Positions 4,441-37,409 of a stretch of DNA of 64,000 nucleotides are shown piece after piece. Below the pieces are notes generated by a model. The model worked only from the letters and a program-made list of their open reading frames with translations, did no database searches and was not told the origin of the DNA. Within the stretch, counting starts at the first letter, position 1. Each line of letters opens with the position of its first letter. Origin of the DNA: Escherichia phage vB_EcoM-E33; sequence record OL780484.1. One strand, given 5' to 3'. The position numbers were made by a program, and so were the translations under genes.

Positions 4441-5073
4441 ATGTCTAAAATTACTTATATCATCAAAGCTTCTGAAGACGTCCTGAATGAAAAAACTGCT
4501 TCGATCTTAGTACATATCATCAAGCATAACTTCATCACTTCAGGCGAAGTCCGTGAAGCCCTGAGTGAGCATTTTAGTGCTGCGGTAGTTAACTCTAACA
4601 TCGGTGTATTGATTAAGAAAGGATTCATCGAAAAATCTGGTGACGGTTTAGTGGCTACAGGTGAAGCAATGGACCTAGTTCAAAAAGCCGCCGACCTGTT
4701 CGCTTCTGAAAATGCTCCAGAGATGTTGGAAAAACGTAAAACACGTAGCTCACGTGGTGTTACTCCTGAAATGGTAACCATGGCCGATGAAGTTAAAGCT
4801 TTATTAGAAGATCGTATCGAGATTCGTGAAATTGCTGAAAACCGTAGCAACCTTGAAGTTCGATTCGCCAAACGTACCAATGGTATTCGTCAAATTGAAG
4901 TCCGTCGTGACGGAATGATGCGTATCTTCGGTTATAATATGACTGATAAAGAAAAACAAGTGTTTACTTCCTTGAATCTTGATGTTAAGATTAAGACTGG
5001 TGGTAAGAATACTTATATCGACTTCCAAAATGTATCATCTGAAGTTATCAAAACCGTAACCAACGCAATTTAA
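4441..5073 (+). CDS. motA: MotA middle-transcription activator
   Basis: 210 aa; N-terminus MSKITYIIKASEDVLNEKTASILVHI and NSNIGVLIKKGFIEKSGDGL match remembered T4 MotA. Confidence 0.9.
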   Translation: MSKITYIIKASEDVLNEKTASILVHIIKHNFITSGEVREALSEHFSAAVVNSNIGVLIKKGFIEKSGDGLVATGEAMDLVQKAADLFASENAPEMLEKRKTRSSRGVTPEMVTMADEVKALLEDRIEIREIAENRSNLEVRFAKRTNGIRQIEVRRDGMMRIFGYNMTDKEKQVFTSLNLDVKIKTGGKNTYIDFQNVSSEVIKTVTNAI

Positions 5074-6825: not shown

Positions 6826-7101
6826 ATGACTAAAATTGAAATTGTTTCCGAAATTGCTACTATTGTTTCCATTTTGATTAAAACGGATTGTGAAGACATC
6901 ATGCAACGTCGTGATGAGTTTATTGCCTTTTTGAATGAGTTGGGTATTCGTAATGAACATGGAAAGGAACTTAATGGTTTGTCTTATAACAAATTATTTA
7001 AGTCATTAACTGAAGATGAACGTGACACTCTTATTGAGCAATTTAATGAAGGGTATGAAGATATACACCGTTACTTAATGATGTATACCTCCAATTTCTA
7101 A
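6826..7101 (+). CDS. asiA: AsiA anti-sigma70 factor
   Basis: 91 aa; similarity to remembered T4 AsiA (ASILIK, FIAFLNE-G, LI-EFNEG-E, YRYL-MYT). Confidence 0.85.
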   Translation: MTKIEIVSEIATIVSILIKTDCEDIMQRRDEFIAFLNELGIRNEHGKELNGLSYNKLFKSLTEDERDTLIEQFNEGYEDIHRYLMMYTSNF

Positions 7102-7751
7102 CGTGTTCGACCTAATGTCCTCCCAGCCTGACCGCACATAGACGAAAGTCTAGGAAATCCTAAATCCGGTTTGATATCATACCAGTACAACGATATCGAG
7201 CCGGCGTAGACGTTATCCAAATTAAAAAACGGGCACGAAAACATATACGTGAATTGTGTTTTCTTCTTTGTAGGAAGGAACACAGTTTCGGTACTTGATT
7301 CAAAATAGTTCCCGTTAACTCCCGCCATATATTCTACTGACGTTTTGTCAATTGGAAACCCTCCCGTGTTTTTTGCGTCTACCGTTTCCGGTAATTTACC
7401 CTCGTAAGCCACCATATCCACAAAATAATTCATGTTGGTCGGTCTAAAAGAATATATTGCTGTGAAGTCTGCGCCTGAAGAAGAATGCACTATTCGGAGC
7501 TGCTCGATAGCCGCAATTTTAAATCTATTGTCCTGGTCTTGTCTAATCATTTCAGTATAAGAGGCATAAGTAGTCTCTTTATAAAAGTTTAGAATATACT
7601 CGCCTTTATACCAAACCAATGCCATAAAGAACAATAATATTACGACTAGGACCCGGGAAAAAACTACTTTCCCGGAAGAAGTATCTTTAAAAATTCTATC
7701 AAGAAGTCCAAAAAGTAGGTCTGATAATGATATTCCTACTTTTGGTTCCAT
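7098..7751 (-). CDS. t: holin T
   Basis: 217 aa; collinear similarity to remembered T4 holin t (DLLFG-LDR-FKD, VVILLF-MA-VWY, YSFRP-N-NYFVD-AYEGKLP). Confidence 0.9.
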   Translation of the reverse strand: MEPKVGISLSDLLFGLLDRIFKDTSSGKVVFSRVLVVILLFFMALVWYKGEYILNFYKETTYASYTEMIRQDQDNRFKIAAIEQLRIVHSSSGADFTAIYSFRPTNMNYFVDMVAYEGKLPETVDAKNTGGFPIDKTSVEYMAGVNGNYFESSTETVFLPTKKKTQFTYMFSCPFFNLDNVYAGSISLYWYDIKPDLGFPRLSSMCGQAGRTLGRTR

Positions 7752-7769: not shown

Positions 7770-7777
7770 TATTTATA
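7770..7777 (-). promoter_or_regulatory. T4 late promoter TATAAATA for gene t
   Basis: plus-strand TATTTATA about 19 nt upstream of the t start codon. Confidence 0.6.
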
Positions 7778-7788
7778 GAGCTTATGCA

Positions 7789-8583
7789 CTATAGCCAGGA
7801 ACCGTAGATAACACCTGTATTATGCCAAGTAGGAGAACTTCCAGCAACAGCAGCTCCTGCGCCGCCGCCAGCGCCGACTTTTAGAACTTTACCACCATCA
7901 TTCCATGCGTTCTGGCCTGCGGCGCCAGCATCACCGCCATGACCTGAGTGGGCGTTACCATAATTGTATCCACCGCCAGGGCTTTCATAAGAAGCACCAC
8001 CGCCAGAGTATCCACCGCCGCCACCAGGGCCAAATGGACGTCCACCACCACCACCGATATCTTGCCAGTTAGCACCTGAGTGAGGACGATACGCAATGCC
8101 GCCACCGCCGCCGCCACCGCCACAGATAACCCCACCATTATTAATTCTTAAACGACCACCAATATCATTTACAATACAAGTTCCACCCCATTGGCCGTTG
8201 CCATCGCCACCCGAGTGGGTCCAACCACCTTGACCACCTCGGCCCCATATATGAACCCCACCACCAATATTCAATTGAACATATTCGTTTGGAGTATCCC
8301 CATACATAAAGAACAATGGAACATCACGGGTATAAGATACTAATGTACCTGTAAGATTAAACACAATAGGCGCACTACCAGCTTCAAAGCAACGGTCGCG
8401 GAACCACTGCCCATTAAAGTTATGGTCCCCACCTAAAGTATGAATAACTTCAACAGACCGGCCGTTCATATTACTCATCCAAAATGGGACACCCATTCTT
8501 AATCTTACAGCGGCTCCTGCCATCCAAGGGTCTCCTGTCTGCGCCCTTGCAGAAGTTCCTATCCACGGTCCTGCTACTGCCAT
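7789..8583 (-). CDS. 38: gp38 receptor-binding adhesin, T2-type with glycine-rich motifs
   Basis: 264 aa from the internal ATG preceded by GGAGG; poly-Gly blocks ([22 protein letters not shown]) separated by variable segments. Confidence 0.8.
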
Positions 8584-8614
8584 ATAAACCTCCAAGGGGC
8601 CGAAGCCCCTCTTA

Positions 8615-11600
8615 TTATTTTAACAATGATTTAATTAATGCTTTAAGTTCTTCAATCTCTGATTTCAATTCTGCTATTTCTGCAGTGTGCTCATTGATTG
8701 CAGCTGTATTTAAACCAATTACACCGTTATAGTTCAAACGAAGTAAAGCTTCACCATCAGGGTCACCTTCAACTAATTCTGGTAAAATAGCTTGAACTTC
8801 TTGAGCTATCAAACCGGCGTTAGGTTCCCATTTCTGATTGCCTTCTTCATCTAGGCCTCGCTTCTGCATATAAGTGTAACCATTAATTTTAGAAAGTGTT
8901 TGTGAAGCATTTTCAAATTTAACGAGGTCTTTTTTAACGCGAATATCAGAACGGACATAAACATCACGGACAAACGTTGAATAGGCATCACCCTGTTGGA
9001 CTAAATGACCATGAGAAACAATTGCTTTACCGACTTCTGTCCAAAAAGCACCGGATGAATCCCATAACCCCTCATGTGCCAGACGTTGAGATCCCCATGA
9101 CGCAATATGAACACTATCGGCAAACATGTTAATACGGCCGTCACCGCCCCAGACTAAACCAGTATCATTATCACCAATAACAAGACACGGCCCGGGCCAT
9201 GCAGGGTCTCCACCACCAGCTGATAATCTTGCTCCAGTTTTAACCATATTAGGAACATACAGAACTCCATTGTGATGGAATTCATAGATAGCTTGTGGGT
9301 CTTGACCATTTTCCTGGTTACCTACACGAATAATACCTTGCGCCCAAGTATTAGTAATGCGTCGCATACCAAAATCTACACCCGATATGTATCCTTCGTT
9401 AGTAATACCAGATTTTCCTTTGATAATCGGGTAATAACTATCATTACCAACATTACCAAAATCTACAAACACCGGAGCTTCTTGTCGCCATTGATTACCC
9501 CAATCGCCAGCTTGGTGTGCAGCCCATTGTGAACCCTTTATATAAAGACGGTCCCTATTAAAATAAAAAGTATCCGCCCCTTGAGGAGCTAAACCAACTT
9601 CTCCACTATTATGAATATTAACGCCTGAATTAGTTTGGAAACTATAAAACGATAAGTTGTTATCAGCGCCGCCATTACCAACATACCAGTTATTAACGCC
9701 TGCTTTTTGTCCTTTCACATAACCAGATTCGGTTGCAGCACTGTTAATAACAATAGCATCCGAGTTTGCATTGATAGTTAAGCGGCCGGTCATCGTGTCG
9801 CCTTCTTTAGCCACACGGGAGGCAATAGCATCATGAATGTTAGTTATATCACCAGCAGAGGTAAATACGTTCCAAATGTTGGAGAAGATATTACCATTTC
9901 GAGCAATAGTAGCTTCACCGCCGCCAACCTGTACGTTATCCGGGAAATTAACTGTACCATCAGCATTAAATCTTGATGTATGACCTTGGGTCCCGTCTTC
10001 TTTGTAATGATGCAAAACAAAAGTCCCGGAATTAATTTCAGTACCTAAAGACCAAACAGCTTTTCCTTGTAAGAATTTCTGCTTAACAATAGGATAATAT
10101 TTACTTACCGCGTCATCATCAATTTCTTGGAAAACAGGAGCTGCTTGTGCATATTGAATATCGTAACCGCCTGCACCTGCACCATGTCCACCGAATTTAA
10201 TATAACCGTTTGCTGCAAAAAAAGCATAACTCAAATCTAGGTCAGGAATAACAACCTTACCGGTATCCAATGCCAAACTAAATGGACGAAGTGGTCCGAT
10301 ATCACCATTTTTACCTTCACCGTAAGCAGTTGGAATAATATGAAGACTTCCTTCTGAACGTCTAAAAATGGCACCGTAATCATTGTTCCAAATACGAAGA
10401 CCATTTACAGCATTTGTCGCGATTTCACCGGCTGCGCTGATTGTACCGTCAAATGTAGCATTTTTTACTACAGTCAAGTTTTCATTAACAATCTGGGTGC
10501 CATTTAGAACCGATTCGACTTTACCAGCAGTTGTTCGTTGAATATATTGCATCCAGCTAGTAGCATCAGATATTTCCATTACGTTTTTACGGTCGCCATC
10601 AACATTAGTAAAGGTATTACCCCAAACGCTGATAGTCATATTATCAACTGAACTACTTCCTGTAGTATTTCCTCTGAACATTAGTGTAGAAGCATTGTTG
10701 TGGCCATCAATATTAACCGAACCACCAACAACATCAATATTACCAGGAGTAACTAACAAACCACCAGCGGTGTTAACGTTTGTAGTACCCTTACCACGGA
10801 AATAGTGGTGATAATTGCCACCTTGATAATAACCTAAAAGAGTTTGACCGTCGCCATACGCGTTATTATCATGATAAGTGACAACCGTCGCCAAAGCATA
10901 GTTTTCCGACGGAGGAGTGGTTAAATCGGTACCGTTTACAGAATAACCCATAACCATTTTTCTAAGACTGGTGGTTTCTGCAGGGCCGTACAGGAAAGTT
11001 CTCGTGCCGTTATTAACGCTGAAATAATATCCATCCTGATGCCATTTTAACCCGGTGTCATTATCGCCAAGAGCAATTGAAGCCGTTCCTAATTCAGAAT
11101 ATCCTTTAGAGTTACCTGGGGTGCCTACAGAAATAGAATGGCCTGCTTTCAATCCACCGGACCAGGTAAATGACCAAAGATAAGCTTCTAAGCCGTCGCC
11201 GGCATACCAGGTTATTCCGTCATTATCTTTAACTTCATGGAAAATGCTCGAACTAACGGCATTTCGCATAACACGAAGGTGGTTAATAGCTGTTTCACTT
11301 TCTGCCAATGGGGTATTATCGGCCATTGAATAGATATCATAATCACCTTTAACCTTTTTATTAGTAATAACTTTATTGGTATAAATTACCGGAGTTGATA
11401 CAGATTTCCATCCAAAAACTTCAGGGGAAGAAAACACACCATTGCCTGAAAACGCGTAGGTGCTTTCGCCACTTGTCGCATAATCTTGTACGCGAATATT
11501 AACTACCTGAGTGGTCGCTCCAGCATTATTTGGCGAAAAGATAATGCCACGTTCGCGGGATGCGCCGTCAAAAAATCTCAAATGGGACGTCGATGCACTC

Positions 11601-11941
11601 TTAGAAATAAGCTCGCCACCTTCGGTCATTATCTGGCCAGCGGCAATAATGTCACGAGTTACACGAGCAATACCGGTTAAATTAAAATCACCTGTTTGGG
11701 TAAAGGTACCATTTAGGGTGTAATCGCCAGTCTGGTTGTAGTTACCGGTATGAATAACATTGCCGTCAATATTACCACCTTTAGCAAAGCCAAGGTCGAT
11801 AATCGCTCCAGTATCGTCTTTAGTAAAAAGTAAACGGTCCTTTAAGTTAATAGCCAGTTCGCCTTCAGCCAACTGGGCCGGTGCTGGACGTACACCGGCT
11901 ACTTTACTTCTTTTAAATTGGATTTGCTTTAAAGTAGCCAT
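8615..11941 (-). CDS. 37: gp37 long tail fiber distal subunit with C-terminal intramolecular chaperone-like domain
   Basis: 1108 aa; N-terminus [18 protein letters not shown]; C-terminus [15 protein letters not shown] followed by a coiled-coil tail. Confidence 0.9.
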
Positions 11942-11949
11942 AATGCCTC

Positions 11950-12597
11950 TTAATAATAACCAAAATCTTGAATAGAATCTTTAATAACAATCTGGTCAAA
12001 ACGAGGAACGTGTCCTGCGTCAGAGGCCGGATTCAGCGAAATAAAGTTAGGAGCAGCAAGTACCCCGGTCATTGTTTGCATGTTAGTATTATTTATTTGG
12101 ACTTGTTTTGCGTTATCTACTAACGATAATCCTACTTGAGCTTTAGTAGGGGTGTTGCCTGGGCTGAATACACGACCTGATTCGTCATAAACTTGACGGG
12201 ATAATGAATCACCCATTACTGTGAGGCGTTTAGCACCCACTACTGTACTTGGGTCAAATATAACGAACGGTGTACCGTCTTCCGTTTCATATCCAAAAGC
12301 ACCTTTAATACGGAAAGAAGCCGTGAACGGGGCCCCGCCAGTTCTTGCTCCTAATTTAATACCATATCCATTGGTATCATTAAAGGTCAGGCCTTTTTCA
12401 AAATACACGTTATTCTTATAATTACCACCATTTGCTTTTGAAACAAAGTCGTTATCAGCGGCTTGTGGTTTATTATATTCGGTGTAAACTTTATACGTTT
12501 TGTAAAGAAGGTCATTTGATACAGGCGTTAAGGGGAAATTACCTTGGTGCCATAATACTGAACCTCCTGCTGTAGAACCTAATTTTAAATCTGCCAT
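11950..12597 (-). CDS. 36: gp36 long tail fiber hinge (knee) protein
   Basis: 215 aa; synteny 34-35-36-37-38. Confidence 0.8.
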   Translation of the reverse strand: MADLKLGSTAGGSVLWHQGNFPLTPVSNDLLYKTYKVYTEYNKPQAADNDFVSKANGGNYKNNVYFEKGLTFNDTNGYGIKLGARTGGAPFTASFRIKGAFGYETEDGTPFVIFDPSTVVGAKRLTVMGDSLSRQVYDESGRVFSPGNTPTKAQVGLSLVDNAKQVQINNTNMQTMTGVLAAPNFISLNPASDAGHVPRFDQIVIKDSIQDFGYY

Positions 12598-35900: not shown

Positions 35901-36233
35901 ATGAAAACTGTAAATCTGAATGCATCTGTTAAAGCTAAATGTTTCAACGGTGAATATCAAGAAACCATGTGGGTCCTGACTGCAGTTGAAGGTGATATCA
36001 TCGAAGTTGAAACAACTGAAGGTATGGGTACTGATTTTACATTCACCATCGAGCTTCACAACTTCTTTACAGGTTGGATTTATGAACTGAAAACTGTAAT
36101 TACTGGTCGTATTGAAGAAAACAAAAATGGTGAATTCTATTATGTTAATGCCCGTACACGTGCTGAACGTCTGATTGCTCAGATGAAAAAAGTTGGTAAA
36201 CTTGATATGAAAAATTGGAATGTTGTGAAATAA
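35901..36233 (+). CDS. hypothetical protein, 110 aa
   Basis: ORF track; RBS GGAGAATAAA. Confidence 0.55.
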   Translation: MKTVNLNASVKAKCFNGEYQETMWVLTAVEGDIIEVETTEGMGTDFTFTIELHNFFTGWIYELKTVITGRIEENKNGEFYYVNARTRAERLIAQMKKVGKLDMKNWNVVK

Positions 36234-36235
36234 AT

Positions 36236-36265
36236 GTTTTACTTTGGTACAGGTTGTGTTATTAT
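36236..36265 (+). promoter_or_regulatory. T4-type early promoter heading leader-repeat copy 2
   Basis: GTTTTAC, spacer, TATTAT; ggtacagg/cctgtacc inverted repeat. Confidence 0.45.
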
Positions 36266-36306
36266 AGACCTGTACCAAATAATACGAAAACAAACTGGAG
36301 AATAAA

Positions 36307-36672
36307 ATGAACTACATCAACTTCGAACGTAAATATGTTTCTAACGGTATCGCTGGTTCTTCTGAAGTTATTTGCCTGTGGAAACACAACAACGGCGCGG
36401 TGTGCGAAATCGAACAGTGCATGACTCCTAACTACGTTTATATGCGCTTTGAAAATGGTATTACGGTTTCAATCACAATGGAAGGTTCTACTTTTAAAAT
36501 CGCTTTAGATGATGATTTCCGTCAACGTGATTTAGGTACCCATCCTTGCTGGAACGGTGTTAATCGTAAGCTTCTGGTTAAAACTTGGATTCGACACATC
36601 CTGAGCAACCGAGCTAAACCTGAACACCTGGAAGCAATCTTTGATGTAGTTCTGAACGAATTCGACATCTAA
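36307..36672 (+). CDS. hypothetical protein, 121 aa
   Basis: ORF track; RBS GGAGAATAAA. Confidence 0.55.
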   Translation: MNYINFERKYVSNGIAGSSEVICLWKHNNGAVCEIEQCMTPNYVYMRFENGITVSITMEGSTFKIALDDDFRQRDLGTHPCWNGVNRKLLVKTWIRHILSNRAKPEHLEAIFDVVLNEFDI

Positions 36673-36713
36673 TCTTAAAAATGGAGGCTTCGGCCTCCTT
36701 TGAGGAAAATATT

Positions 36714-37001
36714 ATGTTTATGACCACTTATTTCGATACTCGTAAAAATTTCTGTGAAGTTGTTTTCTCTAAAGCAGGTAAAGACGTTCCTGCCGACAAA
36801 CAACCTACTCGTGAATCTATTAAGGCCTATGCTGATGTTGTATGTCCAGTAGAATTCCGTACTGTTAATGGTCGTGATACCTTAGCAATCACTAAGCTCA
36901 ACCGTGATATCAATATCGACCCTAGTGCCGCCCGTGAAGTCAACACCTCTGACATCTACGGCGGTAATGTTAAATCACACGGCTTTCAGATGAGGTTCTA
37001 A
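36714..37001 (+). CDS. hypothetical protein, 95 aa
   Basis: ATG after GAGGAAAATATT; upstream hairpin ggaggc-UUCG-gcctcc. Confidence 0.5.
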   Translation: MFMTTYFDTRKNFCEVVFSKAGKDVPADKQPTRESIKAYADVVCPVEFRTVNGRDTLAITKLNRDINIDPSAAREVNTSDIYGGNVKSHGFQMRF

Positions 37002-37195
37002 TGCAACTATTTTTATCGCAAACAGTCCAGTTAAAAGGTGTAGGTATTCCTGGAATGATTTCAAAGGTTCTACCTGCTTTTAAATTAGGTAATGTTACTA
37101 TTAAAGAAGCCTACACCGTCCTATGGGTCGATGGAACTGAAGATGTTCGCATGGGTGGTGAACTGTCTGTAATCAAATGTTTAAAGCGAGGATAA
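37001..37195 (+). CDS. hypothetical protein, 64 aa
   Basis: ORF track. Confidence 0.45.
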   Translation: MQLFLSQTVQLKGVGIPGMISKVLPAFKLGNVTIKEAYTVLWVDGTEDVRMGGELSVIKCLKRG

Positions 37196-37196
37196 T

Positions 37197-37409
37197 ATGG
37201 TTAAGAAATTGATTCAGAAATTATTAGGTACGGAAATGGTCGAAGTGACTTATCGTGTGACTGATTTATCTCCTGTGCATCCGCAAGATGAACCATATAC
37301 TAAAACAATTAAAATGCTGAAATCTGATGGCGGATTATCTATTGAAGACCGTCTACCTGGTTATGGTCATTGGGCTGATGTCGAAATTATAAGTGTCAAA
37401 GATGTCTGA
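37197..37409 (+). CDS. hypothetical protein, 70 aa
   Basis: ORF track. Confidence 0.45.
   Translation: MVKKLIQKLLGTEMVEVTYRVTDLSPVHPQDEPYTKTIKMLKSDGGLSIEDRLPGYGHWADVEIISVKDV

Follow-up and report, generated by a model that had tools for sequence, protein, structure and literature searches.

A T2/T6/S16-type distal tail fiber module with a recombinant gp38 allele in a Dhakavirus-like genome

The locus described here raises the question of how the distal long tail fiber of this phage recognizes its host. In T4, the tip of gp37 itself binds the receptor and gp38 is a 183-aa chaperone; in T2 and T6, gp37 is cleaved and gp38 caps it (PMC3157838). The window (the whole 64,000-nucleotide stretch that was analyzed) is a Dhakavirus-like T-even genome with ~98% identity to phage WG01 outside the fiber genes. 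The locus very likely encodes the distal, receptor-recognizing part of a T2/T6/S16-type long tail fiber, in which gp37 would cleave itself and then be capped by a gp38 that most probably binds OmpA.

Genome context and the gp38 adhesin

The gene order is 36-37-38-t as in T-even phages, with a late-promoter box preceding t. Gene 38 lies directly downstream of gene 37 and upstream of the holin gene t, and WG01, PSD2002, and FB have the same layout. No RNA genes turned up when the whole window was scanned with Rfam and for tRNAs. A sequence-only reading had placed the module at 7789-9000, a range that contains all of gene 38 but, of gene 37, just the final 128 codons, in which the chaperone domain is complete; the true end of the module lies beyond it, at 11941. 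The genes and the spacer between them are as follows.

7789..8583, minus strand: gene 38, T2/S16-type receptor-recognizing adhesin, 264 aa (open reading frame; Pfam, PHROG, and PDB matches; stop codon 7789-7791)
8584..8614, minus strand: gene 37/38 spacer, with a second in-frame TAA (8612-8614), a hairpin (8596-8609), and a Shine-Dalgarno sequence (8589-8593)
8615..11941, minus strand: gene 37, distal long-tail-fiber subunit precursor, 1108 aa (PHROG 1699, E = 0)

The spacer hairpin is GGGGC-UUCG-GCCCC and the Shine-Dalgarno sequence is GGAGG, with a predicted RNA fold of -17.8 kcal/mol (z = -2.35). The ORF lister began gene 38 at a TTG four codons upstream (8595). We instead placed the start at the ATG at 8583, since the TTG falls inside the hairpin/Shine-Dalgarno region and all close homologs are 264 aa and begin MAV.

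Using the Pfam models PF05268 and PF21721 with their curated cut-offs, gp38 matched GP38 (7.5e-63, 212.7 bits) and Gp38_N (6.3e-19, 68.1 bits; cut-off 25 for both). It also matched PHROG 2056 (9e-103) and, by sequence, two PDB entries, 9V85 (PP01 gp38, 3e-71) and 6F45_D (S16 gp38, 5e-49). No NCBIfam model matched gp38 or gp37. Structure prediction, which the sequence-only reading had proposed as a check, agreed with its assignment of an adhesin: the AlphaFold2 model has a pLDDT of 86.6, and its sole Foldseek matches in the PDB were 9V85 (E = 4e-28; TM 0.86, normalized to the target) and 6F45_D (E = 1e-24). The predicted fold is a β-helix followed by a polyglycine-II (PGII) sandwich, and two domains are delimited.

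8467..8583, minus strand: gp38 N-terminal attachment domain, aa 1-39 (Pfam Gp38_N over aa 1-39)
7792..8451, minus strand: gp38 β-helix and polyglycine-II sandwich receptor-binding domain, aa 45-264 (Pfam GP38 over aa 45-264; aligns to the crystal structure of the PP01 receptor-binding domain)

In the attachment domain, conservation of W7 and W20 reaches at least 90% among 62 homologs, and W35 is invariant in a 16-sequence alignment. Three Trp residues have a docking role in S16 gp38 (PMC6851490), and by analogy W7, W20, and W35 are predicted to dock into three pockets of the gp37 trimer. The S16 gp37-gp38 tip (6F45, Dunne et al. 2018) shares the three-domain gp38, the three Trp anchors, and the PGII sandwich, but its gp38 is ~44% identical, has other loops, and binds Salmonella OmpC. 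The receptor-binding domain of PP01 gp38 (9V85, Terasaki et al. 2026) is ~60% identical and has the same fold; its loops A-E differ in sequence and length, and it binds O157 OmpC via loops D and E. When gp38 was compared with phages by tblastn, only aa 1-176 aligned, because low-complexity filtering hides the Gly-rich half of the protein; full-length identities given here were taken from the protein search.

The gene order and names are those of T4, and the shaft of gp37 is homologous to T4 gp37 (34% over aa 1-661), which would fit a T4-type arrangement in which gp38 is a mere assembly chaperone missing from the virion, while receptor binding falls to the C-terminus of gp37. However, gp38 is not similar in sequence to the chaperone gp38 of T4 (BLASTP E = 0.95) and instead matches two solved adhesin structures. 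Beyond aa 661, gp37 is unrelated to T4 gp37, and this C-terminal third has neither the Collar nor the Phage_fiber needle domains but carries a Peptidase_S74 domain, which T4 gp37 does not have. At the sequence level, the T4-type arrangement is already refuted, and we regard it as almost certainly wrong. The earlier claim that gp38 is a T2-type adhesin rather than a T4-type chaperone thus holds, and no result spoke against this architecture.

The gp37 tip and its C-terminal chaperone domain

The C-terminus of gp37 matches S16 gp37 (6F45_A, 7e-46), and S16 gp37 shares both the tip and the S74 domain with its SDxRxK motif. The two regions of gp37 that bear on processing are listed here.

8951..9344, minus strand: gp37 distal tip, about aa 866-997, the predicted carrier of gp38 once cleavage has occurred (alignment to the tip of S16 gp37, 6F45_A)
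8618..8950, minus strand: gp37 intramolecular-chaperone/autocleavage domain, aa 998-1108 (Pfam Peptidase_S74; motif alignments; heptad pattern)

The Peptidase_S74 match (PF13884) covers aa 998-1057 and scores 45.5 bits (cut-off 22; E = 9.3e-12). The chaperone-like domain that had been proposed from a 15-residue stretch of gp37 is therefore present; that stretch, aa 1043-1057 (8771-8815), lies inside the match. Ser998 (8948-8950) and Lys1003 (8933-8935), the autoproteolysis residues, stand in the sequence SDIRVK, an S-D-x-R-x-K motif that also includes R1001 and aligns with SSDRRIK of S16 gp37, (A)DLRAK of MyRF, and SDERLK of 8JOV. A Ser and a Lys at this spacing form a catalytic dyad (PMC3742443). 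The coiled coil noted earlier at the end of gp37 corresponds to a heptad-patterned helix at roughly aa 1079-1108 (about 8618-8707). In a single-sequence AlphaFold2 model of aa 975-1108, the pLDDT was 48.5, and the confident part is only the last ~30 residues, modeled as a helix. The endosialidase and MyRF autocleavage domains share the Pfam match, the Ser-x4-Lys dyad, and the C-terminal helix. Outside the motif the similarity is remote (MyRF E = 0.035), and here the domain terminates a fiber that would be capped by a separate adhesin.

By analogy with characterized relatives, gp37 would be made as a 1108-aa precursor in which the Peptidase_S74 domain (aa 998-1108) serves as an intramolecular chaperone, nucleating trimerization of the β-helical fiber. 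Once the trimer has folded, the domain would cut itself off after Ser998 via the Ser998/Lys1003 dyad, freeing a fragment of ~110 aa. One gp38 molecule would then cap the exposed tip of the gp37 trimer in a 3:1 arrangement, attaching by the three-helix domain at its N-terminus, where W7, W20, and W35 would occupy three equivalent pockets.

As gp37 cleavage is here drawn from characterized relatives, the S74 domain could instead be a degenerate relic that aids folding but stays uncleaved, with gp38 attached elsewhere or not at all. We think this very improbable. The S998/K1003 dyad and the surrounding motif are intact, processing is documented for T2/T6-type fibers, and the S16 homolog was crystallized as a gp38-capped gp37 tip. 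The DNA of the S74 domain is also 90-98% identical to that of relatives, while the adjoining tip is 50-70% identical, which argues for purifying selection on the domain. For the tip (8974-9344), the lower values are those to WG01, PSD2002, and FB; identity to CE1, Manna, PD112, and KIT01 is ~91%.

Glycine motifs, variable loops, and mosaic ancestry of gp38

Glycine accounts for 27% of gp38 overall and for 37% over residues 111-264, with one run of eight (155-162), two of five (177-181 and 187-191), and several of three. Across 100 homologs, the glycine blocks are invariant or near-invariant and the most variable columns are the segments between them, as had been proposed for this 264-aa protein. 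G114-G117, G156-G160, and G180-P183 are invariant (G156-G160 in 62 homologs). The entropy profile of the same 100 homologs delimits five variable segments, which are listed with the longest glycine run; loop A was mapped by PDB alignment to PP01 and the loop definitions of PMC12892980.

8188..8223, minus strand: variable loop A, aa 121-132 (high column entropy; corresponds to PP01 loop A, W119-I124)
8098..8121, minus strand: Gly8 run, aa 155-162, GRM3 of the classical scheme (recombination breakpoint at its 5' edge)
8056..8097, minus strand: variable loop B/HVS2, aa 163-176 (entropy; contains R166, the equivalent of AV119 R165)
7981..8019, minus strand: variable segment C/HVS3 region, aa 189-201 (entropy and alignment)
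7939..7968, minus strand: variable loop D, aa 206-215 (entropy, alignment, and PP01 loop-D mapping)
7870..7923, minus strand: variable loop E region, aa 221-238 (entropy; exact allele unique among the 100 sequences compared)

In the proposed assembly, the conserved Gly-rich motifs would build the β-helix and polyglycine-II sandwich of the C-terminal part of gp38, and the short variable segments between them would make up the distal loops, whose partner would be an outer-membrane protein, most likely OmpA.

Gene 38 has a mosaic ancestry. It tracks PSD2002 over codons 48-150 and 234-264 and WG01 over codons 154-228, and its first 46 codons track neither. The switch of informative sites from the PSD2002 to the WG01 pattern falls between codons 150 and 154, and this breakpoint abuts the Gly8 run. 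The GGN codon repeats had been suggested as hotspots for recombination or slippage. The former, which is an old published proposal, fits the mosaic. A search for slippage found just a weak 12-nt repeat in two copies. Since the Gly8 codons are mixed (GGC GGT GGC GGC GGC GGT GGC GGC) and the G8 core is invariant in relatives, slippage is unsupported. The run appears to vary from 5 to 10 residues among relatives because the neighboring variable segment has Gly residues at its margins.

With 93% identity to its closest database protein, gp38 is a new, recombinant allele of an already known type of adhesin, in a well-studied T2/T6-like fiber tip. The gp38 proteins of PSD2002 and PSD9 (Dhakavirus) and of wV7, KIT03, and O157 typing phage 7 (Tequatrovirus) are all 264 aa, with 93%, 92%, and 89% identity, respectively, and they share its Pfam architecture and its set of variable-segment alleles. 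Compared with PSD2002, the N-terminal 46 codons differ, codons 154-228 are WG01-like in DNA, and a few loop residues are substituted. A C-terminal GSWL is common to gp38 here and PSD2002, whereas the Tequatrovirus alleles end in GPRV.

The architecture, gp37 processing, loop-based specificity, and recombination at conserved motifs are already published (Henning, Krisch, Dunne/Leiman, Brondsted, and Otsuka groups), and the locus therefore carries little weight for basic biology. Its value is practical, as one more natural variant in the type 1 OmpA-adhesin group and as a clear natural chimera whose breakpoints could guide rational adhesin swapping for phage therapy.

Receptor assignment

The sequence-only reading had named the variable gp38 loops as the likely host-range determinant, a role that is established for T2/S16-type gp38 (PMC3157838, PMC12892980, PMC12032242). 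The nearest experimentally characterized proteins are the type 1 OmpA-binding Gp38 of AV111, AV119, and FL08 (Lutz et al. 2025, Vitt et al. 2024), with 88%, 86%, and 84% identity, respectively; these phages have Mosigvirus or Tequatrovirus backbones, whereas the backbone here is Dhakavirus. Dependence on OmpA has been demonstrated experimentally for all three (PMC10844046; PMC12032242). Loops A-D are near-identical to theirs, and loop B (aa 163-176) is identical to that of AV111 and one residue apart from that of OmpA-dependent AV119. Two residues are retained as well: R166, the equivalent of AV119 R165, for which a role has been described (PMC12032242), and D218 (codon 7930-7932), which lies three residues past loop D in a GGDAG glycine motif and is the equivalent of AV119 D217. 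Because the variable loops are near-identical to those of proven OmpA-dependent phages, OmpA is, by homology, probably the receptor of this gp38 allele.

The allele also differs from the tested OmpA binders. Position 167 is Pro here and Val in AV119 and FL08, and several loop-E residues differ, including N228 and AAG. At the C-terminus, GSWL replaces the GPRV of AV119, so that W263 stands where AV119 has R262. The latter is a modeled OmpA contact only (PMC12032242), and OmpA-dependent AV111 likewise ends in PWL.

OmpC was considered as the receptor, since OmpC-binding PP01 gp38 is the top-scoring PDB match, and was set aside because the loops differ from those of PP01. More broadly, the same adhesin architecture could serve another porin (Tsx, OmpC, OmpF, FadL, or OmpW) or need an LPS co-receptor, as AV111 required LPS in addition to OmpA (PMC10844046). 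Single substitutions can switch porins in T2/S16-type gp38, and loop E, the main specificity loop of PP01 (PMC12892980), is unlike that of the tested OmpA binders, as are the last four residues. Nevertheless, the likeness to PP01 is confined to the conserved scaffold, loops A-D and the R166 and D218 positions are those of OmpA-dependent phages, and the receptor has been found to be predictable from gp38 phylogeny. We therefore judge another porin or a required co-receptor to be unlikely, and OmpA stands as the preferred assignment.

A related idea, to which we give slightly less credence still, is that this recombinant allele recognizes a different repertoire of OmpA loops, or a different porin, than the characterized type 1 OmpA adhesins. 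It arises because single loop substitutions in gp38 switch porins; in RB68, Q206L moves specificity from OmpF to OmpW (bioRxiv 10.64898/2026.04.02.716166). If true, the chimeric ancestry would be a natural case of host-range change via exchange at a glycine motif. The features behind this idea are the combination of the unique loop E, P167, and the C-terminal GSWL.

Organization of the fibre-tip locus

The genes for the long-tail-fibre subunit gp37 and the adhesin gp38 lie on the minus strand of the window, where genes 36, 37, 38 and t follow the T-even order.

Genes of the fibre module
11950-12597, minus strand, gene 36 (open reading frame and family matches)
8615-11941, minus strand, gene 37 (1108 aa)
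7789-8583, minus strand, gene 38 (264 aa)
7098-7751, minus strand, holin gene t (open reading frame and family matches)

The range 7789-9000 marked in the sequence-only reading cuts gene 37 at codon 981; the functional unit extends to 11941. Without the fibre genes, the backbone is ~98% identical to Dhakavirus phages WG01, QL01 and LQ5, which indicates that the window is a segment of a T-even (Straboviridae, Tevenvirinae) genome. A stretch at ~36000-37386, which contains a gp30.7-like ORF (36307-36672), has no alignment in WG01 and is present in LQ5 and ABTNLS3; it is a variable accessory region of this backbone.

The ORF lister placed the gene 38 start at a TTG at 8595, within the spacer hairpin/Shine-Dalgarno region. 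This start was dropped in favour of the ATG at 8583, which has GGAGG 6 nt upstream and gives a product of 264 aa, the length common to all close homologues. The spacer itself (8584-8614, minus strand) holds a GGGGC-UUCG-GCCCC tetraloop hairpin at 8596-8609 (-17.8 kcal/mol, z = -2.35); the tandem stops of gene 37 (TAA TAA) precede it, and the gene 38 ribosome-binding site, GGAGG, follows. CUUCGG hairpins are familiar in T4 intercistronic regions, and this one is a candidate for stabilising the transcript or for coupling translation. A T4-type late-promoter box, TATAAATA, follows the gene 38 stop and precedes holin gene t at 7770-7777 (minus strand); it is one of 9 copies in the whole window, no more than chance gives. 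A homologue of the middle-transcription activator MotA (Pfam MotA_activ and MotCF) is encoded at 4441-5073 on the plus strand, and WG01 and PSD2002 have an annotated anti-sigma factor gene at the position matching ~6826-7101 of the window. Together these confirm a T4-like regulatory gene set beside the fibre module.

The gp38 adhesin and its likely receptor

Gp38 matches Pfam Gp38_N (aa 1-39, 6e-19) and GP38 (aa 45-264, 7.5e-63), as well as PHROG 2056, "tail fiber protein; host specificity" (9e-103). Only two PDB entries match its sequence, the PP01 receptor-binding domain (9V85, 3e-71) and, over the full length, S16 gp38 (6F45_D, 5e-49). AlphaFold2, run with 62 homologues, gave a model (pLDDT 86.6) that likewise retrieved 9V85 (E = 4e-28) and 6F45_D (E = 1e-24) in Foldseek, with all other PDB matches at E > 2, so the predicted fold resembles these two adhesins. 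Gp38 contains W7, W20 and W35; in S16, where gp38 is a monomer, the corresponding three tryptophans anchor it to the gp37 trimer by fitting into three equivalent pockets (PMC6851490). Direct comparison with T4 gene 38 found no similarity (E = 0.95), in keeping with the earlier assignment of gp38 to the adhesin type rather than the T4 chaperone type.

Glycine makes up 27% of gp38 and 37% of residues 111-264, with one G8 run (155-162), two G5 and several G3 runs. In an alignment of 100 homologues, near-invariant or invariant glycine blocks (including GRGG 114-117, G156-G160 and GGRPFG 180-185) separate the most variable columns, aa 121-132, 163-176, 189-201, 206-215 and 221-238 (loops A-E). The observation of poly-Gly motifs with short variable segments between them is thus confirmed, and its interpretation as a receptor-recognition module supported. 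The system as such is already thoroughly characterised; only the allele is new.

In the databases searched, no sequence exceeds 93% identity to that gp38 allele. In a collection of 5.8 billion protein sequences, the closest proteins were from PSD2002 (93%) and PSD9 (92%), followed by wV7, KIT03 and O157 typing phage 7 (89%), AV111 (88%), AV119 (86%) and FL08 (84-85%). AV111 has been shown to use OmpA (PMC10844046), and AV119 and FL08 are "type 1" broad-host-range OmpA binders of Lutz et al. (PMC12032242). The window protein has loops A-D nearly identical to those of these three phages; its 14-residue loop B differs from the AV119 loop at one position. The modelled AV119 contact residues R165 and D217 are kept as R166 and D218, whereas R262 is replaced by W263. 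The C-terminal GSWL recurs in PSD2002 and S16; the AV111 ending, GPWL, is related. The OmpC-binding PP01 gp38 has the same scaffold but different loops. Because loops A-D follow the OmpA-dependent phages and not PP01, homology points to OmpA as the best prediction and quite probably the receptor; we go no further than this since single substitutions can switch porins among T2/S16-type gp38 adhesins (bioRxiv 10.64898/2026.04.02.716166).

The C-terminal domain of gp37

Homology to T4 gp37 is restricted to the first 661 residues. Where T4 gp37 has Collar and Phage_fiber domains, the window gp37 has Pfam Peptidase_S74, "chaperone of endosialidase" (aa 998-1057, 45.5 bits, cut-off 22), and 6F45_A, a fragment of S16 gp37, aligns with the final 190 residues of the window protein (7e-46). 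A single-sequence model of the S74 domain was too poor to show the fold. The domain begins S998-D-I-R-V-K1003, which aligns with S16 SSDRRIK, (A)DLRAK of the MyRF ICA structure 7DC3 and SDERLK of 8JOV. The catalytic dyad of self-cleaving S74 domains is a Ser and a Lys five residues apart (PMC3742443), and a cut after S998 would free 110 residues. In T2 and T6, gp37 is known to be cleaved and the fibre to be capped by gp38 (PMC3157838). The 15-residue motif that had drawn attention to this region is at aa 1043-1057, and the protein ends in a helix with regular 3-4 hydrophobic spacing. The S74 match and the aligned S998/K1003 motif bear out the proposal of an intramolecular chaperone with conserved autoproteolysis residues.

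Mosaic ancestry of the fibre genes

Sliding-window identity to the backbone relatives WG01, PSD2002 and vB_EcoM_FB is 99-100% in the holin gene and 91-100% in gene 36 (apart from one drop, to 84%, in the PSD2002 comparison), and falls to a patchy 50-95% in genes 37 and 38. Within gene 38, we counted matches at informative sites, those that distinguish WG01 from PSD2002.

Matches of gene 38 at informative sites
Codons 48-150: PSD2002 74, WG01 5
Codons 154-228: PSD2002 7, WG01 38
Codons 234-264: PSD2002 27, WG01 0

Fisher p values are ~1e-19 for the first contrast and ~1e-13 for the second, both optimistic because the breakpoints were chosen after inspection. The first switch, from PSD2002-like to WG01-like, adjoins the G8 run. 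Of the suggestion that GGN repeats are slippage or recombination hotspots, the recombination part fits this mosaic; slippage finds no support, since the glycine codons alternate GGC/GGT, the block core is invariant and the one repeat that TRF reported, 12 nt x2, is weak. That gene 38 exchanges occur at its conserved motifs or close to them is an old proposal (Tetart et al. 1996 and 1998, as cited in PMC3157838), and engineered gene 38 swaps limited exchange to the part from HVS2 (loop B) onward (bioRxiv 10.64898/2026.04.02.716166).

Codons 1-46, the attachment domain, are unlike both WG01 and PSD2002. The gp37 tip (8974-9344) is also only 50-70% identical to these two, and ~91% identical to CE1, Manna, PD112 and KIT01; the chaperone domain between the two regions retains 90-98% identity. 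Because the gp37 tip and gp38 N-terminal domain contact each other in S16 (PMC6851490), their joint divergence is compatible with co-adaptation or co-transfer. In the gene 37 shaft, 10320-10544 and 11370-11670 are 99-100% identical to vB_EcoM_FB and 53-88% to WG01 and PSD2002, which points to yet another donor.
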